Assembly (NCBI GenBank): GCA_964555935.1
Contig: CAZKUN010000007.1
Location: 22,474-86,473, forward strand
Direction: 5' to 3'
Length of the DNA stretch: 64,000 nucleotides
Source: an uncultured Armatimonadia bacterium
Lineage (GTDB): Bacteria > Armatimonadota > Zipacnadia > Zipacnadales > VGFC01
In this document: piece by piece, positions 12,304-53,284 of the stretch
How positions within the stretch are numbered: position 1 is the first letter of the stretch
How the letters are laid out: every line of letters starts with the position of its first letter
Translations under genes and position numbers: made by a program
Notes under the pieces: generated by a model
Told to the model about the DNA's origin: nothing
Seen by the model: only the letters and a program-made list of their open reading frames with translations
Databases searched by the model: none

Positions 12304-14628
12304 GTGATCCACGTGGACGGCATCGACAGGACCTACCACTGCGACGTGCTCGTCATCGGTTCAGGCGTCTCCGGGTACTGCGCGGCGATCCAAGCCGGGC
12401 GCTGTGGCGCGAAGACGATCCTGATCGAGAAGGACGAGGTGCTGGGCGGCAACTCGGGCCCGAATCTCGGCGTCGGAATAACCGGCGCGGACCGCTACAA
12501 CGACTACGCGGGCGAGACGGGGATCATCCAGGAGCTGCAGGAGGAGGGCTGCTGGATCGACGCGATCACCCACGTCTCTCCCGGCTCGATGGGCTACACG
12601 ATCCACCGTCGGTTCGAGGCGGTCGTGCAAGAGCACCTAAAGCGCGCCGGCGTCACGATCCTCAAGCGCCACTGCGCCCGCCGACCGATCATGGATGGCG
12701 ACCGCATCGCGGCGGTCGTCTGCGAGGACAGCGCGGCGTTCCAGACAGCGCGCATCGATGTGGGCGGCTTCGTCATCGAGGGCTCGGGCGACGGCGAGAT
12801 CGCCGCGTTGGCGGGGGCGGAGTTCGACTTCGGCAGCGAATCGCGGGACGAGTTCGGCGAGCGTTCGGCTCCGGAGCAGCGGACGAACCAGGTCCAGGGC
12901 ACGAGCCTCGTCGCCATCGCCCACCCCACGGGCCGCGACATCCGCTTCGTGCCGCCCGCCGGGACGCCCGAACACGTGCCGCGCGTCTGGCATGGGCGCA
13001 TGTCGAGTTGGCTGAGTCACCATGACGGATGGTTCGCGCCGGGCAAGGATCTGTTCTTCCTGTACGTTACCGAGACCGGCGGGCACATGGACACCGTGCG
13101 CGACGACGGCGACATCTACGAGATGCTCCTGAGGCAGCTCTGGGCCGAGTGGGACCACATCAAGAACGGTCCCCACGCCGAGGAGGCGCGCGAGTGGGAT
13201 CTGCTCTGGGTCAGCCCCAAAGCCGGCAAGCGCGAGAGCCGCCGGTTCATGGGCGACTACGTGCTGACGCAGACGGATGTCGAAGACGGCGTCCGGTTCG
13301 CCGATGACATCACCTACGGGGGCCACGATCTCGACGATCATATGCCGCTCGGCGAGGGCAGCAATATCTTCGCCCATAGCATCCCGCCGCTCTTTGGCGT
13401 GCCCTACCGCTGCTGCTATTCGCGTAACCTCAGCAACCTGTTCCTGGCGGGACGGCTGATCAGCGCCACTCACATCGCTCACTCCAGTACGCGCATCATG
13501 CGGACCGGCGCCGCGATCGGCCAGGCGGTCGGGCTCGCAGCCTCGCTTTGCCTGGAGCACCACTGCACTCCGCGCGCGCTCGACGAAGAGCACATCGACG
13601 AGTTGCAGCAATCACTCATCGCCCGCGACGCGACGATCCTCGGCGTGAGGCGTGAGGACAGCACGGATCTCGCGCGTTCCGCGACGGCTTCGGCGTCGAG
13701 CGAGGTCCGCTTCAACGACCAGGAGCCTGGCACGCTCGTGCCGCTGATCGCACGGGCGGGTGTGGTGCTGTGGGACTGGCCGGAGAATCTCAACACGGTC
13801 AGCCTGTTCCTCCGCAACGATTCCGACCAAGCTCAAGAGCTGCGGCTGAGGATCCTGAGAGCGCGTCGCGAGGGCAAATGGATCGTGCCGGATGACTGGC
13901 ACCAGTTCCATTGGAACGACCTGCGCGACGAGGCCTTCGCGGAGATTCACTCGGCGACTGCGGAGTTGCCCGCCGGACACCACGGCTGGTTCGAGATCGA
14001 TCTCGCCAGTGTCGAGCTGGGCGAGAAAGACGCGGCGAGTGATGACGACCGGGTGCTGATCGCGCTGGACCAGAACGCCAACGTGTCCTGGGCTGTGGCA
14101 ACGCGCCGGAGCGAGATCGCGACAATGGTCGAGCACAGCCATCACCGCCCGCAGTGGGCATCGATGAACGCGATGGCGACGATGCGCCTCGACCCCGCGC
14201 CGTCGGTCGGCGAGGCGACGAATGCCATCAACGGCCACCACCGCCGCACCAGTCGAGCGCCGCTGAACATGTGGATGTCTGATCCCGAGGCCGGGCTGCC
14301 GCAAGAACTCATCCTGGAGTGGCCTGAGGCCCAGAGCTTCGATCAGGTCACGGTTACCTTCGACAACCTCGCGCGGCTCACGAGCGAGAACCCGTGGCAC
14401 AGTGGGAGCCGCGTCGTGCCGTTCCTGGCGAAGGCGTATGACATCAGTGTCTGGGCGGATGGCGAGTGGGCGGAGGTCGTGAGTGAGGACGACAACTTCC
14501 ACCGTCGGCGTACCCATCGGGTTGGTCCGATCCACGCGAGCAAGCTCCGGCTGCGCGTCCTGTCGACGCATGGCGAAGGGTTTGGCGCGAGGGTCTACGA
14601 ACTGAGCGTGCATGATGCGCAGAAGTGA
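12304..14628 (+). CDS. FAD-dependent oxidoreductase (FAD_oxidored family) with C-terminal discoidin-like domain
   Basis: Rossmann dinucleotide motif DVLVIGSGVSGYCAAIQAGRCGAKTILIEKDEVLGGN. C-terminal about 150 aa discoidin-like. ORF-track N-terminal extension overlaps the upstream convergent gene, so GTG 12304 (or 12313) is used as start. Confidence 0.75.
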   Translation: MIHVDGIDRTYHCDVLVIGSGVSGYCAAIQAGRCGAKTILIEKDEVLGGNSGPNLGVGITGADRYNDYAGETGIIQELQEEGCWIDAITHVSPGSMGYTIHRRFEAVVQEHLKRAGVTILKRHCARRPIMDGDRIAAVVCEDSAAFQTARIDVGGFVIEGSGDGEIAALAGAEFDFGSESRDEFGERSAPEQRTNQVQGTSLVAIAHPTGRDIRFVPPAGTPEHVPRVWHGRMSSWLSHHDGWFAPGKDLFFLYVTETGGHMDTVRDDGDIYEMLLRQLWAEWDHIKNGPHAEEAREWDLLWVSPKAGKRESRRFMGDYVLTQTDVEDGVRFADDITYGGHDLDDHMPLGEGSNIFAHSIPPLFGVPYRCCYSRNLSNLFLAGRLISATHIAHSSTRIMRTGAAIGQAVGLAASLCLEHHCTPRALDEEHIDELQQSLIARDATILGVRREDSTDLARSATASASSEVRFNDQEPGTLVPLIARAGVVLWDWPENLNTVSLFLRNDSDQAQELRLRILRARREGKWIVPDDWHQFHWNDLRDEAFAEIHSATAELPAGHHGWFEIDLASVELGEKDAASDDDRVLIALDQNANVSWAVATRRSEIATMVEHSHHRPQWASMNAMATMRLDPAPSVGEATNAINGHHRRTSRAPLNMWMSDPEAGLPQELILEWPEAQSFDQVTVTFDNLARLTSENPWHSGSRVVPFLAKAYDISVWADGEWAEVVSEDDNFHRRRTHRVGPIHASKLRLRVLSTHGEGFGARVYELSVHDAQK

Positions 14629-14642
14629 TTGAGAGGCAAGCA

Positions 14643-15743
14643 ATGACATCACGCGAACGCATGATCACCGCCATGTTGAACGAGCAGCCGGACATGGTGC
14701 CCGTCGCGCCCGATACCTCGAACATGATCCCCTCCCGGCTGACTGGGAAGCGGTTCTGGGACGTGTATCTCTACAAGGATCCGCCGCTGTGGCAGGCCTA
14801 TATCCACACCTGCAAGCACTTCGGCTTCGACGGCTGGCTACCCAGCATCGGCGCGCAGACGCGCATGCAAAACGTCGCAATCGTTAAGCGTACCGATGAA
14901 CGGATCGTCGTTCAGCCCTATTCCGAGGCGAACGGCAAGCGCGCCTGGGTCCCGCTGGTTCACGTTTACTACGTCGCCGACCCGCCGACCCACAACGTCC
15001 CTTGTGAGAGGATCGGCCTGCCGCGCGTGCCGGAGACTTGGGAGGACTTCGTCGACGAGTCGGAGGAGTTGACGGAGGAGGAAGCCCTGCGCGCCGCTAG
15101 AGAGTTGATGGGGGACGCGGGCGTACTTGGGATGAATGTCGGCATCCCCGGCCTGCACGGGGAGGCGGGGATCTACGAGTATTACGATGACTACACGACC
15201 GTGAAGGACCGCGCGCTGGCGCACGAGCAGACCGTTGAGGAACGCGCGCGCCAGGTCTGTGAGATGGGGCCTGACTTCGTCTTCATCGGTTACTCGGGGT
15301 GTCTCACGTTCCAGACGCCGGAGATGTTCCGAGACCTCGGCCTTCCGAGCCTTCAGATCATCACGCGCGTCGCGAAGGAGTATGGCCTCCCCAGCCAGAT
15401 TCACTCCTGCGGGCCCGAGGCGGCGCTGGTGGAGATCGCCGCGAAGGAATCGGACCTCACGAACATCAACCCGCTTGAGCGCCCGCCAATGGGCGACTGC
15501 AAGCTCGATGAGATCAAACGCGACTTCGGCGCGGACATCAGCCTCATGGGCAACCTCCACACGACGGAGGTCATGCTCCACGGGACGCCCGATCTCGTGC
15601 GCGAAGAGAGCAAGTGGTGTCTCGATGTCGCGGCTGAGGGTGGCGGGTTCATCCTCTCGACCGGCGACCAGTGCGGGCGCGATACTCCGGACGAGAACAT
15701 CCATGCCATGATCGAGGTGGCGAGAGAGTGTGGGAAGTACTGA
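14643..15743 (+). CDS. uroporphyrinogen decarboxylase (URO-D)-like family protein (MtaA/CmuA-like methyltransferase fold)
   Basis: URO-D-like length and conserved pattern. RBS gagagg 5-6 nt before ATG 14643. ORF-track GTG 14625 overlaps the upstream stop. Confidence 0.7.
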   Translation: MTSRERMITAMLNEQPDMVPVAPDTSNMIPSRLTGKRFWDVYLYKDPPLWQAYIHTCKHFGFDGWLPSIGAQTRMQNVAIVKRTDERIVVQPYSEANGKRAWVPLVHVYYVADPPTHNVPCERIGLPRVPETWEDFVDESEELTEEEALRAARELMGDAGVLGMNVGIPGLHGEAGIYEYYDDYTTVKDRALAHEQTVEERARQVCEMGPDFVFIGYSGCLTFQTPEMFRDLGLPSLQIITRVAKEYGLPSQIHSCGPEAALVEIAAKESDLTNINPLERPPMGDCKLDEIKRDFGADISLMGNLHTTEVMLHGTPDLVREESKWCLDVAAEGGGFILSTGDQCGRDTPDENIHAMIEVARECGKY

Positions 15744-24556: not shown

Positions 24557-25600
24557 ATGCCCAACCCCGAGCCCGATCGAAGCGTCCCCATCGCGGAAGT
24601 CATCGAGCAAGTCGGCGTCGCCCGCGCCATCCAGATCAAACATGTCGCCAGTGTCCTCTACACCTATCGCTGCACCCTCCGCTGCCGCCACTGCCTCTTC
24701 AACTGCGCGCCTGATCGGCCTAACGTCCACGTCAGCCTGGAGGACGGGCTTGACTTCCTCCGCCAACTCCACGCGACAGGCCGCTGCATACACATCGCCG
24801 GCGGCGAGGCGTTGATGTACTACCACGAAGTGCTGGAGTTGTGCCGCGAGGCCGACAGGGAAGGCATCGCGCCGCACTTCATCGAGACGAACGCCACCTG
24901 GTGTGTCAACGGGGACGTCGCCCGCAAGCGCCTGCTTGAACTGCAGGACGCCGGCGTGCAAGGACTGCTTATCAGCGCCTGCCCGCACCATCAGCACGAG
25001 TGCCCGCCGGAGCGTTTCCGCACGTGTTACGAGACGGCCGTTGAGGTCTTCGGTGACCGCAATGTTGCGTCGTCTGACGTGCCGATGGAGACGCTGCGCA
25101 ATTACCACGAGATAGCCATGGACGACGAGAAGCTAGGCGAGTATGTCCGGCTCAACAACCCCTGCCTGGTCGGCCGCGCGGGGGAGCGCCTCGCGCGGTA
25201 CCTGCCGGAGCGGCCCATCGACGACCTCGCGCATGACAGCATGTGGAAGGGCGCCAGCGAGGATGCATCGTGTCGCAAGGAGTTCGACGGGCACGACATG
25301 TGGGAGATCCACATCGACCCGTACGGCAACTACCAGACTTGCTGCGGGATCATCTTCGGGAACACCAAGAACGAATCCCTCGCCGAGGTCCTCGAGCGTG
25401 GCGTCCATACCGCGAATCCTCTGACGGCCGCCGTCCACGCGAAGGGGCCGATGGGTCTGCTTGAGATAGCCGTCGAGAAGGGCTACCAGCCCCGCGAGGG
25501 CTACCAGCAGAAGTGCGGCATGTGCTGGGAGATCCGCAAGTTCCTCCGGCCCTTCTATCCAGACATCCTTGGCCCTGCTGAGATCTACCAGGGCGACTAG
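24557..25600 (+). CDS. radical SAM enzyme with SPASM/twitch-like C-terminal region
   Basis: CxxxCxxC (CTLRCRHC). C-terminal IDPYGNYQTCCG resembles the SPASM v-D-P-x-G-x-v-x-P-C block. Further Cys pairs (CGMC). ggagg RBS. Confidence 0.8.
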   Translation: MPNPEPDRSVPIAEVIEQVGVARAIQIKHVASVLYTYRCTLRCRHCLFNCAPDRPNVHVSLEDGLDFLRQLHATGRCIHIAGGEALMYYHEVLELCREADREGIAPHFIETNATWCVNGDVARKRLLELQDAGVQGLLISACPHHQHECPPERFRTCYETAVEVFGDRNVASSDVPMETLRNYHEIAMDDEKLGEYVRLNNPCLVGRAGERLARYLPERPIDDLAHDSMWKGASEDASCRKEFDGHDMWEIHIDPYGNYQTCCGIIFGNTKNESLAEVLERGVHTANPLTAAVHAKGPMGLLEIAVEKGYQPREGYQQKCGMCWEIRKFLRPFYPDILGPAEIYQGD

Positions 25601-25672
25601 CGCCCTCCCTTTCGCTCCCCAGATGGCACTGCTGCCGCTCCCAGGCGTTGAAGGTTCTGTGGAGGCGTTACC

Positions 25673-26905
25673 ATGAAACACCTGCGGCGCGCGTTCCTCG
25701 TGGCGGCGGCGATCTTTGCGGGCACGATGCTCGCGGCCGACCCGATCGAGATGGCTGGCGGCCGACGCCAGCGCATGAATGGCTATGTCGTTCTTCACCT
25801 CGAAGGCACCCCAGAGCAGATGGGCCGACAGCACGGCCTCTTGATGAAGTCCGAGGTCCAGCGGATGATTCGCGACCTGCTGCTAAAGGGCGAGTGCGAT
25901 ACCGAGGCCGAGCATCGCCGGCTAGTCAAGGGCGCGATGGTGATGGAGAAGTACCTCGGCCGCGAGTACCGTCAGGAGTTGCGGGCGCTGGCCGACGCGG
26001 CCGACGTCGAGTACGAGGACCTCGTTCTCGCTCAGCTCTTCGGCGACGTTCAACGCGCGAGCAAGAAGAGCTACTCCACGTCCTCCTCCAGCGACGATGA
26101 CTTCAGCGGCAGCGACCCCTGGCAGTGCACGTCCTACGCCGTCTTTGGGCCCGCCACAGCGACCGGCGAGTGCATCGTCGGTCGCAATATGGATTTCTGG
26201 GACCAGGGAGTCAGCGAGTGGGGCGCCGTGCTCATCCACTTCAAGCCTGACAATGGTATCCCGTTCGTCACCACCTCGTGGGCCGGCATCGTCAACGGCT
26301 GGACCGCGATGAACTTGGAGGGAGTCGTCAGCGCGAACAACAGCTCCTTCGACGGCAAGTCTGACTCCCTCGAGGGCATCAGCACCTGCTTCATGGTCCG
26401 CAAGATTGCCCAGTTCGCCCATGATGTCGAGGAGGGCGTGCAGATCATCAAAGACACCCCTCGCTCCTGCGGGACGAACATCATCGTCGCCGGTGGGAAT
26501 CCCGCCAACGCGGCGATCGTCGAGTTCGACCACGAGGAAGTCGCCGTCCGCTGGGCTGAGAATGGCGCTATTTGCGCGGCCAACGATTTCGAGAAGCTAT
26601 ACCAACGCGAGTCGGCAACCGGCTACACGTCGTACTACTCGCGCGCGGGTCGGCTCCGCGAACTGATCGAGGAGAACTTCGGCGAGATCACCCGTGGCGA
26701 CAACTTCGCTGCCGCCGAGGGCGTGCCGCTGCGCTACATCAACCTGCACTCGGCGCTGCTGTTTCCGAAGGACCTCCGCTTCAACGTCTCGATGTCGCTC
26801 AAGCCCGCGGCCGACCATTGGTATCGGCCCTTCCGCCTCACGCCCAATGGCGTCGAGCCCGTCCCCCTCGATGAGGGATGGAGGGAGACGCTGCCGACTC
26901 CGTGA
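25673..26905 (+). CDS. secreted C45-family Ntn-hydrolase (acyl-CoA:6-APA acyltransferase-like)
   Basis: Signal peptide. Internal nucleophile context WQCTSYAVFGP...GRNMDFWD typical of autoproteolytic C45/AAT-like enzymes. Confidence 0.65.
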   Translation: MKHLRRAFLVAAAIFAGTMLAADPIEMAGGRRQRMNGYVVLHLEGTPEQMGRQHGLLMKSEVQRMIRDLLLKGECDTEAEHRRLVKGAMVMEKYLGREYRQELRALADAADVEYEDLVLAQLFGDVQRASKKSYSTSSSSDDDFSGSDPWQCTSYAVFGPATATGECIVGRNMDFWDQGVSEWGAVLIHFKPDNGIPFVTTSWAGIVNGWTAMNLEGVVSANNSSFDGKSDSLEGISTCFMVRKIAQFAHDVEEGVQIIKDTPRSCGTNIIVAGGNPANAAIVEFDHEEVAVRWAENGAICAANDFEKLYQRESATGYTSYYSRAGRLRELIEENFGEITRGDNFAAAEGVPLRYINLHSALLFPKDLRFNVSMSLKPAADHWYRPFRLTPNGVEPVPLDEGWRETLPTP

Positions 26906-26916
26906 ATCTGGGGTCC

Positions 26917-27855
26917 ATGACACCTCGCGAGCGCGTTCTGACAGCGTTGGCTCACGAAGAGCCCGACCGCGTCCCCCACAACCTCCGGCCCTCCCATGAG
27001 TTGCTGACGATGCTCTCTGAGCGCGTGAGTGAGGTCGATTTCTCCGAGCACTTCGCTCACGACGTCCGCTTCGTACACATCCCCCTCGCTCCCAAGCCCG
27101 ACGACGTGCCCGACATCGACTGGGCGCCCGAGCCGTCGGCCGAGGCCATCGCCGAGGTCGCCAAGGTCGTCGATGCGTTCCACGAGCGGGGCTTGGCGGT
27201 CTGCGGTGGCTACGCGTGCGGCGTCTACGAGCAGGCGAAGCACTGGCTCGGCGACGAGGCCACGATGATGGGGCCACACGACGACCCCGCTAAGTTCGGC
27301 GAGTTCCTCGACCGAATCACCGAGTGGAAGGCCGCCGTCTATGGCGGCTACGCGGCGGCGGGCACGGACATCGTCTGGATGGGCGATGACCTCGGCTCGC
27401 AGCGCTCGCTCATCATGAGTCCCGAGCATTACCGCGAGTGGTACAAGCCTCGCCACGAGAGAATTGCGGACTACATCCGCTCCATCAGTCCCGACGCGAA
27501 GGTCGCCTTCCACTGCTGCGGCCACGTGACGCCGCTGGTCCGCGACCTCATCGAGGTCGGCATCGACGTGCTTGAAGCCGTCCAGGCCGAGACGATGGAT
27601 ATTGCCCACCTCAAGCGCGAGTTCGGTGCGGACATCTCGTTCTGGGGCGGCGTCGGTGCGCAAAGCGTCCTCGCCCGCACCACGCCCGAGCAAGTCACCG
27701 AGGGCGTTCGCGAGACGCTCCGCATCATGGCGCCCGGCGGTGGCTACATCGCGGCGCCGTGTCACACGCTGACCGACGAGGTGCCGTGGGAGAGCGTCAT
27801 CGCCTTCCACCAGACCATCACCGACCACGGCACGTACCCAAATCCGGGAGGATAG
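26917..27855 (+). CDS. URO-D-like family protein (paralog 2)
   Basis: MTPRERVLTALAHEEPDRVPH N-terminus and overall URO-D-like architecture. Start at ATG 26917. Confidence 0.7.
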   Translation: MTPRERVLTALAHEEPDRVPHNLRPSHELLTMLSERVSEVDFSEHFAHDVRFVHIPLAPKPDDVPDIDWAPEPSAEAIAEVAKVVDAFHERGLAVCGGYACGVYEQAKHWLGDEATMMGPHDDPAKFGEFLDRITEWKAAVYGGYAAAGTDIVWMGDDLGSQRSLIMSPEHYREWYKPRHERIADYIRSISPDAKVAFHCCGHVTPLVRDLIEVGIDVLEAVQAETMDIAHLKREFGADISFWGGVGAQSVLARTTPEQVTEGVRETLRIMAPGGGYIAAPCHTLTDEVPWESVIAFHQTITDHGTYPNPGG

Positions 27856-27858
27856 CCC

Positions 27859-29007
27859 ATGCCCGAAACACTCACCCACCGCGACCGCCTGCTCCGCTCC
27901 GCAAGGGGCGAATCGGTTGACCGCGTGCCCATCGATCCGCCGATCGCCTTCGACCGCATCGCGTGGGACGAGAAGGGCTCAGACGCGGCGCCGCATGGAG
28001 ATCCGCTGTGGGTTGAGGTCGCGGAGCGGTGCGCCGAGCACTGCGATGTCTTCGTCGGAATGCCCGCGTGCGGCGCGCTGTTTGATCGGCGCTTCCTCCT
28101 CACGCCGGGCAAGTTCATTGAGCGCCTGCCGGTGGAGAAAGAGGGCGAGTGGACCGTCATCAGGCACGTCGTCCACACGCCCAAGGGCGACCTCACCACC
28201 ACCGACAAGATCCAGGCCGGCGTCTCAACGGGTTGGTACACGGAGCCGCTGGTGAAGACGCCCGATGACGCCGAGGCGCTTCTCAGCGTTCCCTACGAGT
28301 TCACTCCCGTCGACCTCTCGCCGGCCAGGAGTTACGTCGAGAAGGTCGGCGACCGAAGCGTCGCCCACATTGGTGTCTCGACACCCCTTGTCAGCGTCTC
28401 GCGGCTGATGCACTTCGACGAACTGCTGCTGTGGTGCCATACCGAGCGTGAACTCGTGCATCGACTGATCGACACGATGACCGAGCGGATCGAACTGGGG
28501 CTGAGGTACGTGCTCGACGCGGGGCTGGGCGAGATGATGTGGCTCGGCGGATCAGAGCAGGCCACGCCGCCGATGATGGGGCCGGAGATGTACGACGAGT
28601 TCGTGACCCAGTACGACAGCCGGATCATCGACCTCATGCACAATTACGATGGCTTGGTCCATGTCCACTGTCACGGGAAGATCTCGGGGATTCTCGACCG
28701 TCTGCTCGACATGGACGTCGACATGACCGATCCTGTCGAGCCGCCACCTGATGGCGACATCACCATGGCCGAGGCCAAGAAGCGTTGCGCCGGCCGCATG
28801 ACTCTGATGGGCAACATCGAGTTCCGCGAGCTTGAGTTCTCCTCACCCAAGCGCATCCGCGAACTTATCAGGACCGCCATCCTCGACGGCGGCGCGGAGC
28901 GGACGTACCTCTACCCATCCGCCACGCCGATCCAGGCCCTCACGCCACAATACCGCGACAATGCCATTGCCTACATCGAAGCCGGCCTCGAGTTTGGCGC
29001 CTCGTAG
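27859..29007 (+). CDS. URO-D-like family protein (paralog 3)
   Basis: LTHRDRLLRSARGESVDRVPIDPP N-terminus typical of the URO-D/MtaA-like family. 3-nt gap after previous gene. Confidence 0.7.
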   Translation: MPETLTHRDRLLRSARGESVDRVPIDPPIAFDRIAWDEKGSDAAPHGDPLWVEVAERCAEHCDVFVGMPACGALFDRRFLLTPGKFIERLPVEKEGEWTVIRHVVHTPKGDLTTTDKIQAGVSTGWYTEPLVKTPDDAEALLSVPYEFTPVDLSPARSYVEKVGDRSVAHIGVSTPLVSVSRLMHFDELLLWCHTERELVHRLIDTMTERIELGLRYVLDAGLGEMMWLGGSEQATPPMMGPEMYDEFVTQYDSRIIDLMHNYDGLVHVHCHGKISGILDRLLDMDVDMTDPVEPPPDGDITMAEAKKRCAGRMTLMGNIEFRELEFSSPKRIRELIRTAILDGGAERTYLYPSATPIQALTPQYRDNAIAYIEAGLEFGAS

Positions 29008-37631: not shown

Positions 37632-38348
37632 TCAGATCCGGTAGAGCGGCTGCGGCGGACCCGATTCATCGATCGCCCATGGCACCCACACCAGCCCGAA
37701 CGCGCGCATCATCGTGTCGCTCTTGCGCGGCGGCACGGTTAGTTCCGCCACTTCGAACTCGCTTGGGTCAGGCTGCGCCTGGAGGTCGGCGATGGCGAGC
37801 CGACATTCCTCCTCCAGAGCATCCAGATTCGCTTGCTCTTCGACCAACGTCTCCTTCGCCCTGCCCACGTCGTCGCGTTGCTGCATCGAGCGCCCCGCGC
37901 CTCGCAACGCGCTTGTCGCGCGGCTGACGTTGCGTTGGCTGGTGAGCTTGCGCCCAAAGAGCGCGCCGACCAGCGTCGCCCCAACCGAGATGGTTGCCTG
38001 CAGCGCGTGCTGGTTCGCCTCCGATTTCTCTCTCGAGACCTTATCCTCGGCGCGGCGGATGCGGTCGCGGATCTGCTTGATCTTCGATTCGTACCTTGTC
38101 CGCAGCTTCGCGACCTCGAGGTCGCGCTTCTCTCGCTCCAGGTGGCTCAGCCCCGCGCGGAACGTCCCCTCGTCCTCACCTGGTTTGCTCGTTCTTTTTA
38201 GCGCGGCGCACGTGAGGAGCGTCACCGGCAGGCAGCGGTATATGTAGTCAACGCAGCCCTTCTGCCACGCCTTGTAGCTCTTGGCCCGGCTGGCTGCGGC
38301 CGGTACGGAGCCGTACTCCGCGGCTAGCTGCGCCGGATGGCGATCCAA
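37632..38348 (-). CDS. hypothetical coiled-coil protein
   Basis: K/E/R-rich heptad-like central region (EREKRDLEVAKLRTRYESKIKQIRDRIRRAEDKV), Cys-containing N-terminus. 90 nt downstream of the YjgR-like ATPase on the same strand. Confidence 0.45.
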   Translation of the reverse strand: MDRHPAQLAAEYGSVPAAASRAKSYKAWQKGCVDYIYRCLPVTLLTCAALKRTSKPGEDEGTFRAGLSHLEREKRDLEVAKLRTRYESKIKQIRDRIRRAEDKVSREKSEANQHALQATISVGATLVGALFGRKLTSQRNVSRATSALRGAGRSMQQRDDVGRAKETLVEEQANLDALEEECRLAIADLQAQPDPSEFEVAELTVPPRKSDTMMRAFGLVWVPWAIDESGPPQPLYRI

Positions 38349-38438
38349 GGCGATGTCCTGAGCGTTGATGGGCTGCGCGTCATCCCAAGCTACCGCGCCA
38401 CCTTCATCAGGGACGCTCGCCAGCAGAACGACACCGCG

Positions 38439-40085
38439 CTACTCGTCGAGTTTCACGCCCACTCGCACGTAATGCGCCTGCGCTGAGGCAATGATCTGGG
38501 GCCGGTACATGATCCGCGCGGAGGATGGGGGAGACGCGGCAATTGGGAGGAAGTACTGCTCGACCTCCGCCGGCATGGGCGGGCGATCGTTTGCCGGCTC
38601 CGGCTCGGGTACGGGTGGTGCCGCGGCCGCCGGCGTTTGCACGGGCGCGGGGGCGGCCGTTGTGGGTGTGGCTTGGAGGCCGGCGGTCAACTGCTGGATC
38701 TGCGACCGCGTCAGCGGCCCGCGAAGGTAAGACATCGCCCACCGCGTGTGGAAGACTACGGGCGCCTCCTCGTGAACGTTGTGCATCAGGAAGACGCGCT
38801 TGCCCAGGCCTGATAGCACGTCGTCGATCTGGGCCCGGTTGAAGCCGCCGCCCGCCGTGGCCGCAACGCCCTCAAGGCCATCCAACACTCGCGCCTTGTC
38901 CCGCTCGGTCTGCAGCCGTCCGATGAACCATGTCCCCGTGTTCGCCAGGCCCTTGTAATCCAGGTCCACTGGGTTCTGCGTCGCCAGCAGGATGCCCAGG
39001 CCAAATGCTCTCGCCTGCTTCAGCAGCATCAGCATCGGGCGCTTGCACGGCGGCGTCGCGACGGGCGGGAAGTAACCGAAGATCTCGTCCATGTATAGCA
39101 GCGCGCGCAGGCTTGATGTCCCGGGTTGGCGCCGCACCCACGCCAGCACCTCATTCAGCAGGAGCGTCAGGAAGAACATCCGCTCGGCATCGGAGAGATG
39201 CGCGATGTTGATGATGGAAAGCCGCGGCCGGCCATCCGGCGCGTGAAGCAGGAGGTCGACATCCATCGGATCGCCCTCGAGCCATGCGCTGAAGCCTGGC
39301 GATGCCAGCAGGTTATTGAGACTCACCGCCAGGTCGAAGCGATCCTTCGATGGATACACCGACTCCAGATCCAGCACACCAACGCGGTCAAACGGCGGGT
39401 CTTGGATATCGCGCACGAGCGACGGCAGGTCGAGATCCTTGCCTTCGCTCCACGCGCGGTGCACGATGTTCGAAAGCAAGATGTGTTCGCGGCTGCGAAC
39501 GGGATCCGGGTCCAGCCCAACCAGCGCCAACAGGCCCGATACCGCGCCCTGCACGCGATCGTTGAGGGCCTCGGAATCTCCAGCCAACTCCGGCCCCGGC
39601 GCGCTGAACGACTTCAGCACGTTCAGCGGCACGCCCGTCGTGCTTCCCGGGGTGTAGACCACGGTATCCGAGGCTGCCTTCAGCCTCGCAATTCGCTCTC
39701 CGTCCTGATCCCATTCGGCGAGGCCCTCGCGCCACTGAGTAGCGGTCTCCTTGGCGAAATCGTCGGGCGTCATGCCCGCGCGAGCCGCCTGGTCGTCGTC
39801 GATCCACGGGCGGAAGTCCTCCGGCCGAAGCTCGGGGAACGTCAGCATCAGGTTGCCGAGATCGCCCTTCACGTCGATGACGATCGCCGGCACCCCATCG
39901 ATCGCCGCCTCCTCGAGCAGCGACACGCACAGCCCCGTCTTGCCGCTCCCCGTCATCCCCACGCAAATGCCGTGCGTTGTCAGATCCTTCGAGTCGTACA
40001 GCAGCAGATCATCCAGGATCTTCCCGGCGGTCATATCGTATTCGCGACCCAGGTAGAGCGAGCCCAGCTTCTCGTAATCGTGCAT
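38439..40085 (-). CDS. YjgR/DUF853-type HerA-FtsK superfamily P-loop ATPase
   Basis: GMTGSGKTG Walker A followed by [13 protein letters not shown], matching the E. coli YjgR GATGTGKT...ADVKGDL pattern by recall. Pro/Ala-rich linker near C-terminus. Confidence 0.7.
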
Positions 40086-46692: not shown

Positions 46693-49600
46693 TCACTCTA
46701 TCTCAAAGGGGACGTGTGTCGTGGCGCTCCAGTTCCCTGCGTTGTCGCGCGCCCGGATGTGGAAGCAGTAATGCCCGGGCTCAAGGCCCGTGAATTCCGT
46801 CGACGTATCGGTGCCGGTAATCGTCTCCGGCGGCACTGTCGCGTTGTCTGAATCTAGCGCCCAACTATAGCCGCTCACGCCGCTCGCGTCCGACGGCGCG
46901 GACCATCTGAGGCCGGCGCTTTCGGCCGTGCGCGAGTACATCGCGTAGTCGTCGATGATGACCGCCCCATCGGCATTCGGCACCCTCAGGTTCAGGAACA
47001 GCCGGTGCGGATCCTGGTTCGCGCCGACGGCCTTCGCGAGGTCCACCGTTGCTGTCTGCCACTCATCGCTGACGCTGAGGCTCCCCAGTTGCGCCCACGC
47101 CTCGCTCGAGCCGTTGAACGCCGTCGCCATCAGCGCCATCGACCCGCCGCGCGCATTCTCCCCCCGGTACCTGAATCGCAGCATCGGGAAGCGTCTCCAC
47201 TCCTCGCCGAAGTCCTCCAGCATCCCGTAGACAGAGCCACTTCGGTCGCGCAGATCAGTCAGCTCGATGCACCCGGGGCCCGTCGCGCCGCCTGAGTCGA
47301 GGCGTCTCACCTGACAGCTCAGAAAGTTGCCCCACTCGCCGACATTGTCCTCAAACCCGTTCGCGGCCATCACCTCGACGGGCACGTAACTCACCACCGG
47401 AGCCGGCGGGGGCTCCGTGTCGGCCGCGTGGTCGACGGTCCAACTCCATTCCAGCGGCGCCATCTCGTTGCCAGCCAAGTCCCCCGCCGCGAGCGTGCAA
47501 GCAACGGTCGCGCCGTCACTCGCGATCGGCCCTGGCGACGTGAACGAAACCTGCCCAGACGCCGCGTCGTGCGTCAGCTCGCGATCCACGATGGAGTAGA
47601 CCGCCTCGCCCACCGTCAGCCGAATGTCGGCCGGGCTGATGCCTGACCCCTCATCAGTCAGCGTCGCCGAGATCACTCTCGTGCACGCCGCCTCGCTGGG
47701 CGCCGGGCTGACGTTCTGAGCCGTCGGCGGCGCTTCATCGGTCGGCACCTCGGTCGCCGGCACGAGGTCCACGTTGTCGAGCCAATAGCACGTGCCGCGC
47801 CGGTTGCCGGGCCAGCCGGTGCTCGCGAACGCGATCCGCGTCACCGGGAGCGATGCCTGTCCCGGGAATGCCTTCTTCAGCAAGCCCAGCAGATCCACCG
47901 TCGCCGAGTGCCACGCGTCATCCGCCGTCGCCTCGATGTCGCCGATCACGGGCCAAGTGGTGTCGCTGTCAGTGAATCGGATCTGCCGTTTCGATCCATC
48001 GACCTCGACAACGATGTCCACCCGGGCCTCGTCGTCGATGCGGTAATCGAACCGTAGCGTCGGGTAGCGCGTCGCCTCGAATGGCACCCCGGTGAGCTCC
48101 GCGCCGAAAGGTCCGCCAATCTTCGCGTTCTGCACTTCCTCGCACCAGTCGCCGTCGCGCGCCTCGCGAGCAATCCTGATCTCAGCTCCTGAATCCACGC
48201 CCCAGGGCTTCAGCGCCATGTCTTGGGGCGCGTTGTCGGGGGGGGGCGCTGTGGGCCCCGTCCTGAATGCCAGATTGCGGAGTTGGTACGTCGCTCCGGC
48301 CCAGTTGCCGCCGATCCCGGCGTGTAGGTACCCTTCGCGCGAGCGGCTCCCGAAGCGCAGCGCCTCCAGCACGGGCGCGTCGGAGTAGGGGAGGAGCATC
48401 CCGCCGAGATCTACTGTCGCGCGGTGCCACTTCCCATCCGGCTTCGCCTCGATGTCGCCCACTGTCTCGATGCCGCGGATCATTTCCACCGGCCCGGTCA
48501 TGCGCGCGCGGAACGTCCGCCCGTCGACGATGGGAAACGCGTCGATCTTCACGCCTTCGGGGATCGCGTATTCGAATTCGAGGATTGGGGTCGTGGCGAG
48601 GTCGATGTCGCCCGTCGGCGCCTCAACCGCAAACGTCCCTCCCGCCGCCACGTTGGTGATCGTGACGCCCTGTCCGCCGCTCGCCACGCGCGACCCTGAG
48701 CTGATCGATCGCCATCCGGCTTCTGATGCCGAGCCCACTTCCGCGCCCCGGCCATGCTCAGGAGCTTTCGGGCGCTCATAGTACACGCGCGCTCGCGCGA
48801 TTGTCAGTCCGTTCTCCACCGTCCATATCCCAACCGCGCCGCCTGGGAGTGGGGCTGCGTCCTCGTATTCGGCCACCAGCTTCCCGTCGACAAACAGGCG
48901 CGCCGCGTTGCCCGCGCGCTCGGCGCGAACATGCCACCACTCCTTATGGAGCTGGCTTGCCTCCGGCCCGCTGATGACTTGGCTCCCAAGCCCGTCGAGG
49001 ATGTCGGGCAACGTCAGATCAGGCGTCTGGGTGACCACCTCGCCCTGTCGGAATATGCCGCTCGCCCGGTTCTTCCAGCCACCGAGCACGAAGCTGTAGC
49101 CCGTGCCGGGCGTCTCGTTCTGCGCGCAGAGCGTCACGAAGATGTTGCTCGGACCCTGATAGAACGGCGCCCACGGCTGGTCCATCGGGATACCGGCAAA
49201 GAACTCCACCACAACATCGCCCTCGAACTCGTCTCGCGTCCAGATCGCCGCCATCTCGGGGTCGCGGCCGTTGAACCACGCCCACCGTGGCGTGCATGCC
49301 CATCGGCTGCGCACGCGCCAGTCGCCCTGCCCAATGCTCCACTCCGTCGGCGCCGAGCGGAATGCCGAGTCGATCACGTTCGCCGATGCGATCGACAGCG
49401 CTCGTGTTTGAGATGCCGGGCCGGAGAAGCCCACCTTGCCGCCACCTAGCGGCGCGTCGTCCTCGAAGCCCAACACGGTCGCCCCGTCCGCCACCGCCTC
49501 CACGGTCGCGCCGCGCCGGCGCAATCGCAGGTCTGAGGTCCTGGCAACCGAGCCTGTCGCCTTCACCTCGGCGCCTCTGGAGAGTTCCAGCGCGAGCGCA

Positions 49601-50889
49601 TCGCCCTCGCCTGGACTCATCGCCAGCCGGTATCCTGCCTGCGCGTCTGGCGGCGGCTGCGATGTCTGCCCGTCGCTCGGCACGCAGATGTGCAGCGTGG
49701 AGGGCTGCGCGAGGGCCTTTTCGTCAGCGTCCCATATCAACTCAACGTCGCCCCAGAAGTAGCCGGCGTGCCAGGCCGAATCTCCAGCGCGCTTCCACTG
49801 GCTGTTCTCATCAGACCACTCCTGCATGTAGTGGTCGTTGAGAAACGAACTCGTCGCCGCGTCGTCCGCCCGCGCGAGCACGGTACGCGGCGTCTGCTTC
49901 GCCCCGGGGTAGATCGCCACGTCATCGAACGCAACCGGCGTCGCGCCGGTGACGGTCAGCAGCGCCTTGCCATGGGCGAGTCCCGGCGCGTCGGCGGCGA
50001 TCACCTCCACGCCGTCGATCGTGCCCGTCACTCGCCCCTCCACAGCCGAGATCGACATGCGGTGCCACTCGTCGGCGTCCATCCGCCATTCCGACTTGGC
50101 AAGTGCCTTGTCTTTCCCCCCGGTTCGCGCGACGATCTCAACGCGCCCGTTAGGACGCTCGGCGTACGTGAATCGCAGCGCGTGGTAGTTCGCGTTATCG
50201 TGCAGCCCCAGTCCCACCCCAAACGCCGTCGCTTCCGCGTCCGGCCGGACTGACGCCTCGACGGTGTGGTCCTCCCAGAACCAATCGCCCGCCGACGCCA
50301 CGGCGTCCGTCTTCTCCGCGCCAGACCCCGCGAACTGAAACGCGTTTGCGCTGAATGCCGCCACGCCGGTCGCCGACAGAGCCCACTCGCCCGCTTCCGC
50401 CGCCCACGGGTTCTCCTCGTCGTCGCCGCGCATGAAGTCATCAGCGAACACGGCCTCGCCGACGGGCTGGCACCAGATCGCCTCCAGGTCCTCCGGTTGC
50501 CCGTCGACCACGCCCCACGTCCCCCCAACGGGCACGTCGCACTTGCCGCGAGCGATCGTCGTCGCGCCATACGCCACCGACACGCGCCCGTCCCGCACCT
50601 TCAGCACGATGTCGCCCGACGCAACCGGCTTGCGCGACTTGCCCCGCGCCACAACGGCGTCGGCGCCGTCGCGTCGGATGGTCACGGTGCATGAGGTCGG
50701 CTTCAGCTCAAATCCGAGGGAGTTGCTCTCGTCGAGGCGTGACGCGAGGATCGTCAGCCCGGCTCGCTCGTTGACGAGATCTGCCGGGACTACGAGGTTG
50801 TAAGGAGCCTCACACGCGTCGCCCGACAGCGCCGGCGTGGGCGATGCAGCATGAGCGGGCATCAGCAACAGCAGCACGGCGAGAAGCAT
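46693..50889 (-). CDS. giant secreted surface protein (about 1398 aa) with ConA/LamG-like regions and C-terminal fibronectin type III domain
   Basis: Signal peptide MLLAVLLLLMPAHAAS. C-terminal Fn3-like (GYSWALD...LEPGHYCFHIRARDNAGNWS). Long beta-rich body. Confidence 0.7.
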   Translation of the reverse strand: MLLAVLLLLMPAHAASPTPALSGDACEAPYNLVVPADLVNERAGLTILASRLDESNSLGFELKPTSCTVTIRRDGADAVVARGKSRKPVASGDIVLKVRDGRVSVAYGATTIARGKCDVPVGGTWGVVDGQPEDLEAIWCQPVGEAVFADDFMRGDDEENPWAAEAGEWALSATGVAAFSANAFQFAGSGAEKTDAVASAGDWFWEDHTVEASVRPDAEATAFGVGLGLHDNANYHALRFTYAERPNGRVEIVARTGGKDKALAKSEWRMDADEWHRMSISAVEGRVTGTIDGVEVIAADAPGLAHGKALLTVTGATPVAFDDVAIYPGAKQTPRTVLARADDAATSSFLNDHYMQEWSDENSQWKRAGDSAWHAGYFWGDVELIWDADEKALAQPSTLHICVPSDGQTSQPPPDAQAGYRLAMSPGEGDALALELSRGAEVKATGSVARTSDLRLRRRGATVEAVADGATVLGFEDDAPLGGGKVGFSGPASQTRALSIASANVIDSAFRSAPTEWSIGQGDWRVRSRWACTPRWAWFNGRDPEMAAIWTRDEFEGDVVVEFFAGIPMDQPWAPFYQGPSNIFVTLCAQNETPGTGYSFVLGGWKNRASGIFRQGEVVTQTPDLTLPDILDGLGSQVISGPEASQLHKEWWHVRAERAGNAARLFVDGKLVAEYEDAAPLPGGAVGIWTVENGLTIARARVYYERPKAPEHGRGAEVGSASEAGWRSISSGSRVASGGQGVTITNVAAGGTFAVEAPTGDIDLATTPILEFEYAIPEGVKIDAFPIVDGRTFRARMTGPVEMIRGIETVGDIEAKPDGKWHRATVDLGGMLLPYSDAPVLEALRFGSRSREGYLHAGIGGNWAGATYQLRNLAFRTGPTAPPPDNAPQDMALKPWGVDSGAEIRIAREARDGDWCEEVQNAKIGGPFGAELTGVPFEATRYPTLRFDYRIDDEARVDIVVEVDGSKRQIRFTDSDTTWPVIGDIEATADDAWHSATVDLLGLLKKAFPGQASLPVTRIAFASTGWPGNRRGTCYWLDNVDLVPATEVPTDEAPPTAQNVSPAPSEAACTRVISATLTDEGSGISPADIRLTVGEAVYSIVDRELTHDAASGQVSFTSPGPIASDGATVACTLAAGDLAGNEMAPLEWSWTVDHAADTEPPPAPVVSYVPVEVMAANGFEDNVGEWGNFLSCQVRRLDSGGATGPGCIELTDLRDRSGSVYGMLEDFGEEWRRFPMLRFRYRGENARGGSMALMATAFNGSSEAWAQLGSLSVSDEWQTATVDLAKAVGANQDPHRLFLNLRVPNADGAVIIDDYAMYSRTAESAGLRWSAPSDASGVSGYSWALDSDNATVPPETITGTDTSTEFTGLEPGHYCFHIRARDNAGNWSATTHVPFEIE

Positions 50890-50988: not shown

Positions 50989-52485
50989 CTACACGCTCAT
51001 CCACGCTGGATCGCACACGCGCGCGACCTCGATCGGTGAGGTGATGCCCTCCAACGCCTTGCGGATCCCATCCGCGAAGAGCGTCGTCATGCCGCCCGCC
51101 ACGCCCGCCGCGTGGACGGCCTCGAGGTCGGCCCCCTGGGCGATCAGGCTGGCTACCTCCGGCTCCACGGCCAGCACCTCGAACAGCGCCGTCTGGCGCC
51201 AGAACCCCACCCCTCGGCAGCGCTCGCAACCCGCGCCCTGGACAAACGTCGCGTCTGCCTGCCATTCGAGGCCTCCCGCCTCGGCTCGACGTCTCCACGC
51301 CGACACGGTCTCGTCGTCCACGGGCAGCTTCTCGCGGCAGTGCTCGCAGACTTTCCGCACCAGTCGCTGGTTGACCGATGCGATGAGGCTGTGGCCGAAG
51401 AGAAACGGCTCGATGCCGGCGTCGAGCACCCGCTGGATGTTGCCGAGCGCATCATTGGCGTGAAGCTGGACCAGCACGAGGTGACCGGTCAGCCCGGCCT
51501 CGACCGCCAAGTTCGCAGACTCGCGATCGGGGACATCGCCTATGGCGATGATGTCGGGATCGGCCCGCATGACGCTTTGGAGCGCGTTCGCAACCGAGAG
51601 CCCAGCGCGCGGGTTCGTCTGGACCTGAACGGCGCCCGGCAGAAGGTGATAGACGGTGCTCTCGACCGTTATCACCGCGTTCTCGTCGGACTGGGCGTGC
51701 ATGACCGCGGAGTAGAGCACGGTGGTCTTCCCCGAACCGGTGGGGCCGCCGAAGATGATGATCCCCGTCGGTTGGACCAAGGCCCGCTCGAGCCGCTCGC
51801 GGTCGGGATCGGACATGCCGAGATCGCCGAGGGAGAGATCGAGAAGACTCTCCGAGACGATCCTCAACGATAGCTTCTCGCCGAGCGGAGTGGGCAGCGA
51901 CTGGACGATGGCACTGAGTGCGTGACCGCCGTGGAGCGTCTCCTGGATGCGGCCCATCTGAGCGCTGGCCCGATCGGCAATGTCCATGCCGGCGAGGAGC
52001 TTCAGACGCCCGACCAACGCGGCGAACACATCGCGCGGGAGATCGGTCACGGTTCGGAGCACGCCGTCGATCCGCAAGCGCAGCCGCCCGCCAGAGCGCG
52101 ATGGGTCGAGATGAACGTCGCTGGAGGGGGGCATCACGGCGGCCAGCAACACCCTATGGGCGAGGGAGGCGACGCCGTCGCGGGCGTCGTCAGGGCTGGC
52201 GCCGAGCGGCAACTCCCCGCCCGCCGCTCCCTCGGGCGCCCATCCCATGACGGCCTCGACGGCGGCCTCGACCGCCTCTTCGTCCGCCGGAGAGCCAGCC
52301 GGATCGGGGCTCTCTAGGAATCGCTCAAGGTCGGCCCGGTACATCCGCCACTGCCGGCCCGCCTTGAACGCTTTGATTCTCCCCTGCGCGATCCATCGGT
52401 AGAGCGTCGTCCGCGTCGTGTTGAGGAAGTCCTGCGCTTGCCTGAAGTCCAGCACATCTCCGCCAGCCTCCATGTCCCGGTCCAT
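50989..52485 (-). CDS. GspE/PilB-family secretion ATPase with N-terminal excisionase/MerR-type HTH DNA-binding domain
   Basis: N-terminus LNTTRTTLYRWIAQGRIKAFKAGRQWRMYRADLERFL (HTH_17-like). GspE N2 region follows. Walker A GGPTGSGKTT, Asp/His boxes, tetracysteine CEHC...CERC. GGAGG RBS. Confidence 0.85.
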   Translation of the reverse strand: MDRDMEAGGDVLDFRQAQDFLNTTRTTLYRWIAQGRIKAFKAGRQWRMYRADLERFLESPDPAGSPADEEAVEAAVEAVMGWAPEGAAGGELPLGASPDDARDGVASLAHRVLLAAVMPPSSDVHLDPSRSGGRLRLRIDGVLRTVTDLPRDVFAALVGRLKLLAGMDIADRASAQMGRIQETLHGGHALSAIVQSLPTPLGEKLSLRIVSESLLDLSLGDLGMSDPDRERLERALVQPTGIIIFGGPTGSGKTTVLYSAVMHAQSDENAVITVESTVYHLLPGAVQVQTNPRAGLSVANALQSVMRADPDIIAIGDVPDRESANLAVEAGLTGHLVLVQLHANDALGNIQRVLDAGIEPFLFGHSLIASVNQRLVRKVCEHCREKLPVDDETVSAWRRRAEAGGLEWQADATFVQGAGCERCRGVGFWRQTALFEVLAVEPEVASLIAQGADLEAVHAAGVAGGMTTLFADGIRKALEGITSPIEVARVCDPAWMSV

Positions 52486-52495
52486 TGCCCGGCCT

Positions 52496-52560
52496 CCGTA
52501 CTATCCATAGATATCTATAAGATACTAATAACCTTTATGGGTATAAACGTCAACCCCTTT
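52496..52560. promoter_or_regulatory. AT-rich island with 12-bp perfect palindrome ATAGATATCTAT (52507..52518) flanked by CCATA/TATGG inverted repeats
   Basis: Seen directly. The only markedly AT-rich stretch in the window. 22-65 nt upstream of the HTH-GspE start, in a divergent intergenic region. Confidence 0.5.
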
Positions 52561-52609
52561 CCCACACAGGACAACAGAACGTCCACTGGGAACTCCACCA
52601 CACGCTCAC

Positions 52610-53284
52610 ATGAAGCACCCCAACTCACTCCCACCACCCCCCATGACCGACCACCTCATCGACGCCGATGAGCGACTTCGGCTGCACTGGGCGGTGGTGC
52701 CCGGCGGGTTGGTGGTTTTCGGGTTGCTGGCAGTGGCGCAACACGGGCTGAGCACATTGCTCGGAGGCGGGCCGCCGCGTTACCCGACGGCGGCGATAGC
52801 GCCGGCGATCTTCATGGTCGGAGGGGCGTATCTCGCGGATCAGTTTCTGCCCGCAACGGGGCTGATCGGGAGGTGGGGAGCGGGGATGGGCTCGGGTGCG
52901 CTGCTCTCGTTCGGGGGAGTATCGCTGCTGCCAGCCATCTGCTGCTCGGCCAACGGCAACACCGGCTGGGTTCCGCTCCTGGTGCTGTCGCTCCTGCTGG
53001 GCGCGATGGGAACGATCGCGGGTGGGCTGATGGCCGTCGCGGCCCGAGCGGAGCGGGGGCGTCTGCCGCGGATGATGCTCGCGCCGGCGCTGGCGGTCGT
53101 GCCGTTCATGGTCTTCACGCCCTGGCTCTACATGCTGACGCAGGGAGGGAACACGCCGCTGACGGCGTGGTTCGTGGCGAACTACCAAGCGCTTTGGGTG
53201 GCAACCGGCGCGGGGGTGGTCTGGTCGGCGGCGGTCGGTCTGGTCGCGTCCTTCGGCCTCTGGATGACGGAGCGCCCTCGCTGA
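52610..53284 (+). CDS. hypothetical integral membrane protein
   Basis: Five to six hydrophobic helices, Gly/Ala-rich. Antisense ORF is Arg-rich. Confidence 0.5.
   Translation: MKHPNSLPPPPMTDHLIDADERLRLHWAVVPGGLVVFGLLAVAQHGLSTLLGGGPPRYPTAAIAPAIFMVGGAYLADQFLPATGLIGRWGAGMGSGALLSFGGVSLLPAICCSANGNTGWVPLLVLSLLLGAMGTIAGGLMAVAARAERGRLPRMMLAPALAVVPFMVFTPWLYMLTQGGNTPLTAWFVANYQALWVATGAGVVWSAAVGLVASFGLWMTERPR

Follow-up and report, generated by a model that had tools for sequence, protein, structure and literature searches.

A 64-kb stretch of DNA from an uncultured Armatimonadia bacterium (the window, by which we mean the whole stretch analysed) encodes on its minus strand a 498-aa protein that joins an N-terminal helix-turn-helix (HTH) domain to the core of a PilB/GspE-type ATPase. 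ATPases of this type are regarded as dedicated pilus or secretion motors whose catalytic site is invariant and whose N1 domain docks onto the machine. The window protein is a member of a large, uncharacterised PilB/GspE-like family, almost wholly metagenomic, in which a winged HTH (wHTH) of the Xis/BldC/MerR type replaces N1. With a probability of about one half, it is a repurposed hexameric scaffold that binds nucleotide and displays six flexibly tethered DNA-binding domains of the Xis/BldC type, and not a secretion motor. We favor a non-motor function because the strongest selection is seen on the winged helix and the ring structure, catalysis is dispensable in many lineages, and the gene stands alone.

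The fusion of an HTH to a GspE-type ATPase, which the initial annotation of this DNA had proposed from the sequence, was confirmed by hidden Markov models and by fold. In Pfam, HTH_17 (PF12728) matches aa 12-59 with 54.1 bits against a cutoff of 27 (E = 1.8e-14), and T2SSE (PF00437) matches aa 105-488 with 286.9 bits. The N-terminus also matches the NCBIfam model TIGR01764, 'excise' (42.4 versus a cutoff of 28.8). None of the Pfam N1 domains (GSPII, T2SSE_N and MshEN) was found in the 498-aa protein, and HTH_17 sits in their place; thus, the N-terminus is a true HTH and not a degenerate T2SSE_N domain. The NCBIfam equivalogs of GspE (TIGR02533) and PilB (TIGR02538) score 334.8 and 323.1, roughly half of their respective cutoffs of 630.25 and 675.65. 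The AlphaFold2 (AF2) model, with a mean predicted local distance difference test score (pLDDT) of 88.6, places the wHTH, a flexible linker, the N2 domain (N2D) and the C-terminal domain (CTD) in this order. The linker contains a conserved helix (aa 69-81) followed by an invariant W82, and its remainder (aa 82-103), modelled with low confidence, is probably a flexible segment. The coding sequence has a GC content of 0.85 at third codon positions, and the identical protein is present on nine metagenome contigs.

In the AF2 model, aa 11-58 form a confident beta-alpha-alpha-beta-beta-alpha module. When aa 1-100 were modelled separately, the best Foldseek match was Pukovnik Xis (4j2n; root-mean-square deviation of 1.0 A over 47 columns, 30% identity), and further matches were BldC-DNA, RacA-DNA, the RdfS excisionase, TraN and the N-domains of MerR proteins (PDB entries including 6ama, 5i44 and 8dgl), as well as HTH domains in the entry of a viral DNA-packaging motor. 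All of these fold matches are DNA binders, and several of them bind as cooperative arrays. The recognition helix and the wing are very basic (R25, R30, K41, R44 and R47), and no other segment of the protein is as conserved within its clade of nine members (56-61% identity) as the winged helix. On the strength of the fold and of the basic helix and wing, the winged helix most likely binds DNA. The N-terminal 50 residues resemble those of Xis/RdfS and BldC/RacA in their HTH_17/TIGR01764 match, in their superposition and in the basic wing K-x-G-R-Q-W-R, but the latter proteins are small, stand-alone and oligomerise on DNA, whereas the module described here is tethered to an ATPase-like body of ~400 residues that would form a hexamer.

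Two further readings were considered and rejected. No integrase or mobile-element gene lies in the neighbourhood of the gene, and the locus is syntenic among Armatimonadota relatives, which speaks against a recombination directionality factor. No HTH-T2SSE protein that would indicate a plasmid or another mobile element as the source was found in PLSDB; the one match with 93% coverage comes from Oceanithermus pOCEPR01, where a complete pilus cluster encodes a canonical protein of the MshEN + T2SSE architecture.

The active site was mapped by an ungapped alignment of aa 161-361 to the G. metallireducens PilB (PilB-Gm; offset +78), and the core was also aligned to T. thermophilus PilF and V. cholerae EpsE. 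Five residues are reported to be completely conserved in PilT-like ATPases (McCallum et al., PMC5424180). For PilB-Gm, the same study assigns Mg coordination to E357 and catalysis to E395 and reports a contact of R271 with E357. Three of the five universal residues are substituted in the window protein. The Arg finger R271, which is the Arg of the D-x-R-V-S segment, is replaced by Ile193, the Mg-binding E357 of the Asp box by Tyr279, and the catalytic E395 by Asp317, so that the GEIRD motif after the atypical Walker B reads GDVPD, with Pro319 standing where the canonical motif has Arg (DPDIIAIGDVPD in the window protein). Both D317 and P319 are invariant across the nine-member clade. In contrast to these losses, the second Arg finger (R286 of PilB-Gm, Arg208 here) is kept, as are both His-box residues (H335 and H342, equivalent to H413 and H420 of PilB-Gm, in the motif LTGH..LH). 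The motifs listed in the initial annotation therefore hold for Walker A (FGGPTGSGKTT), the His box and the tetracysteine but not for the Asp box, where ESTVY replaces EDPVE, and with the three substitutions the core cannot be called complete or intact. From these residues, the window protein would bind nucleotide but have lost hydrolysis or retain it at a very slow rate.

Compared with the structurally characterized PilB (5TSG/5TSH), PilF (5IT5) and EpsE (1P9R), the window protein is 33-40% identical over N2D and CTD (E = 1e-70 to 1e-77), and it shares with them the Walker A motif, the atypical Walker B backbone, the His box, Arg208, the tetracysteine and the predicted fold. It differs from them in carrying HTH_17 for N1, in the Asp, Tyr and Ile substitutions described above, in its scores far under the equivalog cutoffs and in the lack of platform, pilin or secretin genes nearby. 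The protein clearly derives from the PilB/GspE family yet fails several of the features that define membership.

A profile built from 17 HTH_17 + T2SSE proteins was searched against 1.84 billion cluster representatives, and the best 150 matches were inspected. A first homology search had yielded ~19 HTH_17 + T2SSE proteins among its best 120 matches, one of them from Phycisphaerae. The profile search revealed 72 HTH-bearing representatives among the best 150 matches, i.e. at least 72 clusters at 50% identity. The named taxa with family members are Armatimonadota, Phycisphaerae and Candidatus Riflebacteria. Residues of the HTH are nearly fixed across the 72 representatives (T27 in 71, R30 in 70, K41 in 68, G43 in 72, W46 in 71 and R47 in 72), and the zinc cysteines are retained in 96%. 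All five universal catalytic residues occur together in only 33 of the 72; individually, the catalytic Glu is kept in 52, the equivalent of E357 in 57 and that of R271 in 59, while the second His of the His box is retained in 48. More distant HTH members (P0011, P0012, P0014, P0017 and P0021 among others) retain EDPVE and GE[IL]R. The family therefore mixes canonical and degenerate members, and the window protein is part of a degenerate clade. Two members have additional domains: P0018 (L029 598..2418) is a complete open reading frame (ORF) with a GspF-type T2SSF domain followed by HTH_17 and T2SSE, and P0013 carries two Clp_N repeats before HTH_17 and T2SSE. Both retain the canonical catalytic motifs.

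Other routes to the family were less productive. A search with the N-terminal 104 aa alone returned a single short match and was useless as a survey; a scan of genome contigs with exact 8-mer patterns found ordinary GspE genes only, the patterns being too specific, and the metagenome pattern scan contributed just one new orthologous locus. A basic N-terminal tail is present in several members but was rejected as a family feature, as it is inconsistent and absent from the window protein. We found no paper on an HTH-fused PilB/GspE in the literature, and a 2024 review of PilB regulation mentions only GSPII and MshEN N-termini (PMC11656802). The profile search is headed by a separate group of ~15 cluster representatives (P0134-P0147) of ~1000 aa without an HTH, which consist of two tandem full PilB/GspE cores with canonical motifs and rank first because both halves score.

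These data suggest how the degenerate members might work. The PilB/GspE body has had its N1 domain replaced by a Xis/BldC/MerR-type wHTH. In the clade of the window protein, the pocket retains the elements for binding (Walker A, the His box, the zinc motif and one of the two Arg fingers), while the loss of the catalytic Glu, the Mg-binding Glu of the Asp box and the other Arg finger would leave an ATP-binding, hydrolysis-impaired hexamer. The selected function would then lie in the six tethered winged helices, which would most likely bind DNA, and transcription of the gene would be driven by a conserved promoter island of unusually high AT content, which is typical of the family. We infer the loss of hydrolysis, the formation of a hexamer, the binding of DNA and any regulatory role alike. 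A more specific and only tentative proposal is that the non-hydrolysing PilB-like hexamer cooperatively binds AT-rich DNA, including its own island, as a nucleotide-gated transcription regulator or nucleoid organiser, and that this role extends across Armatimonadota, Planctomycetota, Riflebacteria and other uncultured lineages.

Several observations weigh against a hydrolysis-impaired DNA-binding scaffold. Roughly half of the family has a canonical active site, and this canonical half together with the member carrying a GspF domain may reflect an ancestral role in a secretion or pilus machine. Every member of the nine-protein clade retains at least one acidic residue in the Asp box (E275 or D279), and the Glu-to-Asp change at the catalytic site is conservative, so that slow hydrolysis may persist. 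The HTH surface is near-invariant across phyla, which is unusual for a sequence-specific transcription factor and would equally fit a conserved protein or small-molecule partner, and the islands upstream of the family genes have no common detectable DNA motif. Finally, the canonical site in 88 of the 92 non-HTH PilB/GspE domains in the same best-150 list makes for a contrast with the 33 of 72 that is inflated by ranking, since only the best-scoring non-HTH proteins enter this list. The degeneracy within the HTH family stands independently of this bias.

The main alternative, which some of the same observations would fit, is that the protein is a subunit, accessory or regulatory, of a type IV pilus or type II secretion machine whose genes lie elsewhere in the genome. 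Its wHTH would then be a protein- or ligand-binding module replacing N1, and its degenerate core might contact the platform or assemble with a canonical PilB into mixed hexamers. Strong conservation of the PilB fold as a whole, of N2D and CTD and of the zinc motif is consistent with such a subunit, as are an HTH surface nearly invariant across phyla, which a conserved partner would explain, the canonical active site in about half of the family, the T2SSF domain of P0018 and a prepilin-type (N_methyl) gene located 2.3 kb downstream in one related locus (L014). Nevertheless, we consider it rather unlikely: no platform, pilin or secretin gene adjoins the gene in any of the 11 loci compared, and the close structural relatives of the HTH are all DNA binders. 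In M. xanthus, PilB is known to signal independently of hydrolysis (PMC5544727), which is in line with a regulatory subunit. It is a precedent for a PilB-family protein with a regulatory output set by its nucleotide state and not by pilus assembly, but it differs from the window protein in being a canonical active motor with an MshEN-type N-terminus, encoded in a pil cluster and without a DNA-binding domain.

The position of the winged helix raises a further alternative, in which it senses a nucleotide second messenger such as cyclic di-GMP (c-di-GMP) in place of MshEN and the protein is a c-di-GMP effector. The N1 position is a c-di-GMP site in PilB/MshE homologues (PMC11656802), a gene pair of a response regulator and a response regulator-GGDEF protein is conserved within a few kb on the downstream side, both in the window and in L008/L025, and the window contains a GAF-GGDEF gene at 7096..8802. 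However, the protein has no MshEN motif or Pfam match, its fold is that of a Xis/BldC-type DNA-binding wHTH, and the linkage to GGDEF genes belongs to a general synteny and is absent in distant family loci. A c-di-GMP effector is thus highly improbable.

The region upstream of the gene was compared among 11 loci (the window and L005, L008, L010, L014, L015, L016, L024, L025, L027 and L028), which represent eight independent lineages with genomes of 64-69% GC. In all 11, an AT-rich 60-nt stretch (28-35% GC) is located within 200 nt upstream of the gene, and in eight of them no other such island occurs within 10-64 kb. The island of the window is its sole 60-nt stretch below 42% GC. When the window was aligned with five orthologous upstream regions, a TTGACR-N17-TATWWR element was conserved in all six: (C)CTTGAC[AG] and a 17-nt spacer precede TAT[TA][TA][AG], with TG before the TAT hexamer in most, and a second hexamer (TATAAT, TATAAA, TAAAGA or TATAGA) follows 3-5 nt on. 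About 20 AT-rich nt then lead to GGAGG or GAGG and the ATG. A strict sigma-70 scan called no promoter, the second hexamer of the window lacking T at position 6, and therefore the promoter assignment rests on conservation. We take the island to be a promoter and leader unusually rich in A and T. The 5- to 7-mers common to the eight independent islands were not above dinucleotide shuffles, the repeat finder yielded nothing relevant in the island, and Rfam nothing meaningful for the leader. RNA folding of the 5' leader and of the intergenic region before the downstream gene was no better than that of shuffles (z = -0.06 and +0.51, respectively).

The perfect 12-bp palindrome ATAGATATCTAT described in the initial annotation is indeed present within the only AT-rich island of the window, and its promoter-proximal half overlaps the second TATAAT-like hexamer, TATAGA (52514..52519). 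However, it was found in the window species only and is missing from all five orthologous upstream regions, an absence that the initial annotation had itself named as evidence against its proposal of an autoregulatory operator. The CCATA...TATGG repeats in which the palindrome was said to be nested have arms of only 5 bp and are trivial. In the 64-kb window as a whole there are 18 perfect 12-bp palindromes, and dinucleotide shuffling of the 97-nt island produces one in 2.6% of cases. The palindrome is therefore mildly unusual by chance, a species-specific trait of the island and not a conserved operator.

Downstream, a gene for a 1398-aa secreted protein lies on the same strand, separated by 99 nt without a predicted terminator. 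This protein shows weak LamG- or 3-keto-disaccharide-hydrolase-like and weak fn3/Y_Y_Y-like matches, and most of its length belongs to no family. The co-directional position noted in the initial annotation is correct, but the Fn3 content falls short, as the fn3 match of 24.4 bits is under the Pfam cutoff of 25. In L008/L025 and L010, orthologues (46-47% identity) follow the HTH-T2SSE gene after one additional gene, so that three of four sub-lineages have the giant protein, while an unrelated 569-aa LamG_3 protein replaces it in the locus of the closest orthologue (L005-7). Because the linkage is part of a general synteny and is missing in the closest orthologue, it is weak evidence for functional coupling and for the proposal that the HTH-T2SSE protein regulates or acts on the giant protein.

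Taken as a whole, the initial annotation described an active, DNA-binding secretion or pilus ATPase that is autoregulated via ATAGATATCTAT and regulates or acts on the giant surface protein. The domain fusion and the presence of Walker A, the His box and the zinc motif agree with this model; the palindrome lies just 3' of the promoter-like element, a typical position for a repressor site, and is modestly unlikely by chance in the island (p ~0.026), and the frequent presence of the giant orthologue and the gap without a terminator would fit a functional pair. The substituted catalytic Glu, Mg-binding Glu and Arg finger, the absence of the palindrome from the orthologous regions, the 18 perfect 12-bp palindromes in the window, and the unspecific linkage to the giant gene in a neighbourhood that is syntenic throughout all argue against it, and we regard this model as quite unlikely.

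The wider neighbourhood agrees with the gene being an orphan. Scans of ORFs across the 64-kb window detected no gene for T2SSF, a secretin or an N_methyl protein, as the initial annotation had stated for the adjacent genes, and none of the platform, pilin or secretin genes adjoins the gene in the ten related loci, with the N_methyl gene of L014 as the exception at a distance. The gene is likewise an orphan in L014, L015, L016, L027 and L028. Upstream and divergent, genes for NadE, CN-hydrolase, LarA-like, GFO/IDH/MocA and ThuA proteins are syntenic in Armatimonadota relatives, and the downstream pair of the response regulator and response regulator-GGDEF genes is syntenic as well. Transcribed divergently from the gene, 52610..53284 (+) encodes a hydrophobic 224-aa protein, probably a multi-pass membrane protein, without a Pfam or NCBIfam match; a 222-aa gene without a family match is found at the same position in L005-7 but not in the other sub-lineages. 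A defence system was rejected as an explanation of the locus, since PADLOC gave only a weak mad1 HTH match (E = 2e-4).

A scaffold with six tethered winged helices would have a parallel in FtsK, whose gamma domain is a winged-helix DNA-recognition domain connected by a flexible linker to a hexameric ring of the additional strand catalytic glutamate (ASCE) class of ATPases. FtsK is, however, an active DNA translocase of another ASCE family with its winged helix at the C-terminus, and there is no evidence for translocation by the window protein. The HTH-PilB-like family swaps N1 for a DNA-binding fold, keeps this fold near-invariant across phyla and repeatedly loses catalytic residues. If our reading is true, the family would clearly exemplify how a secretion motor can become a pseudo-enzyme whose role relates to DNA, and it would provide a testable entry point into gene regulation in poorly known phyla. 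In practice, the annotation 'ATPase, T2SS/T4P/T4SS family' (type II secretion, type IV pilus and type IV secretion) of HTH-fused genes should not be read as a sign of a pilus or secretion system.

Table 1. Coordinates of the HTH-T2SSE gene, its domains and motifs, its upstream elements and the downstream gene in the window.
Feature	Position	Strand	Basis or remark
Coding sequence of the HTH_17 + T2SSE protein	50989..52485	minus	498 aa + stop; ORF list, translation, Pfam, NCBIfam
Winged helix-turn-helix, aa 11-59	52309..52455	minus	HTH_17, AF2 pLDDT ~90, Foldseek
Linker, aa 60-103	52177..52308	minus	AF2 secondary structure and pLDDT; clade alignment
N2 domain of the PilB/GspE core, aa 104-222	51820..52176	minus	Contains Ile193 (for R271) and Arg208 (R286, kept); aligned without gaps to PilB-Gm
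C-terminal ATPase domain, aa 223-498	50992..51819	minus	T2SSE match, PilF/GspE/PilB PDB alignments, AF2
Walker A GPTGSGKTT, aa 247-255, intact	51721..51747	minus	Sequence
Degenerate Asp box ESTVY (canonical EDPVE), aa 275-279	51649..51663	minus	Alignments
Atypical Walker B and catalytic position DPDIIAIGDVPD, aa 309-320	51526..51561	minus	Alignments
Tetracysteine zinc motif CEHC (380-383)...CERC (420-423), aa 380-423, intact	51217..51348	minus	Sequence, alignment
AT-rich island	52478..52582		Minimum 32% GC over 60 nt; holds the promoter-like elements and 5' leader
Promoter-like element: TTGACG (52548..52553), 17-nt spacer, TATTAG (52525..52530)	52525..52553	minus	Sequence, alignment
12-bp perfect palindrome ATAGATATCTAT	52507..52518		21 nt from ATG
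Shine-Dalgarno sequence GGAGG	52493..52497	minus	7 nt before ATG; conserved in aligned orthologues
1398-aa secreted protein, downstream, co-directional	46693..50889	minus	Signal peptide; orthologues in related loci

Elsewhere in the window, 3592..4461 (+) encodes a second T2SSE-family protein of 289 aa, which consists of the C-terminal domain only and is far more degenerate: its Walker A reads GPRGSGRHS, no GE follows Walker B, and the His box is absent, while CPYC...CDSC is kept. The gene is flanked by the co-directional ORFs 2104..3525 and 4483..5859 (~460-470 aa) without a Pfam match, and its product is possibly a further GspE-like module that has been repurposed in this genome. The region 37632..40085 (-) codes for a 548-aa protein in which only the N-terminal ~50 aa give a weak HerA-like P-loop match (HerA_C/DUF87); a 238-aa ORF without a Pfam match follows, and the two possibly form an NTPase module. 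The window also contains three paralogues of the URO-D family (14625..15743, 26878..27855 and 27859..29007, +). The latter two accompany a radical-SAM gene and an AAT-family gene, the latter of which is acyl-CoA:6-aminopenicillanic acid acyltransferase-like, in an unusual cluster at 24557..29007 (+).

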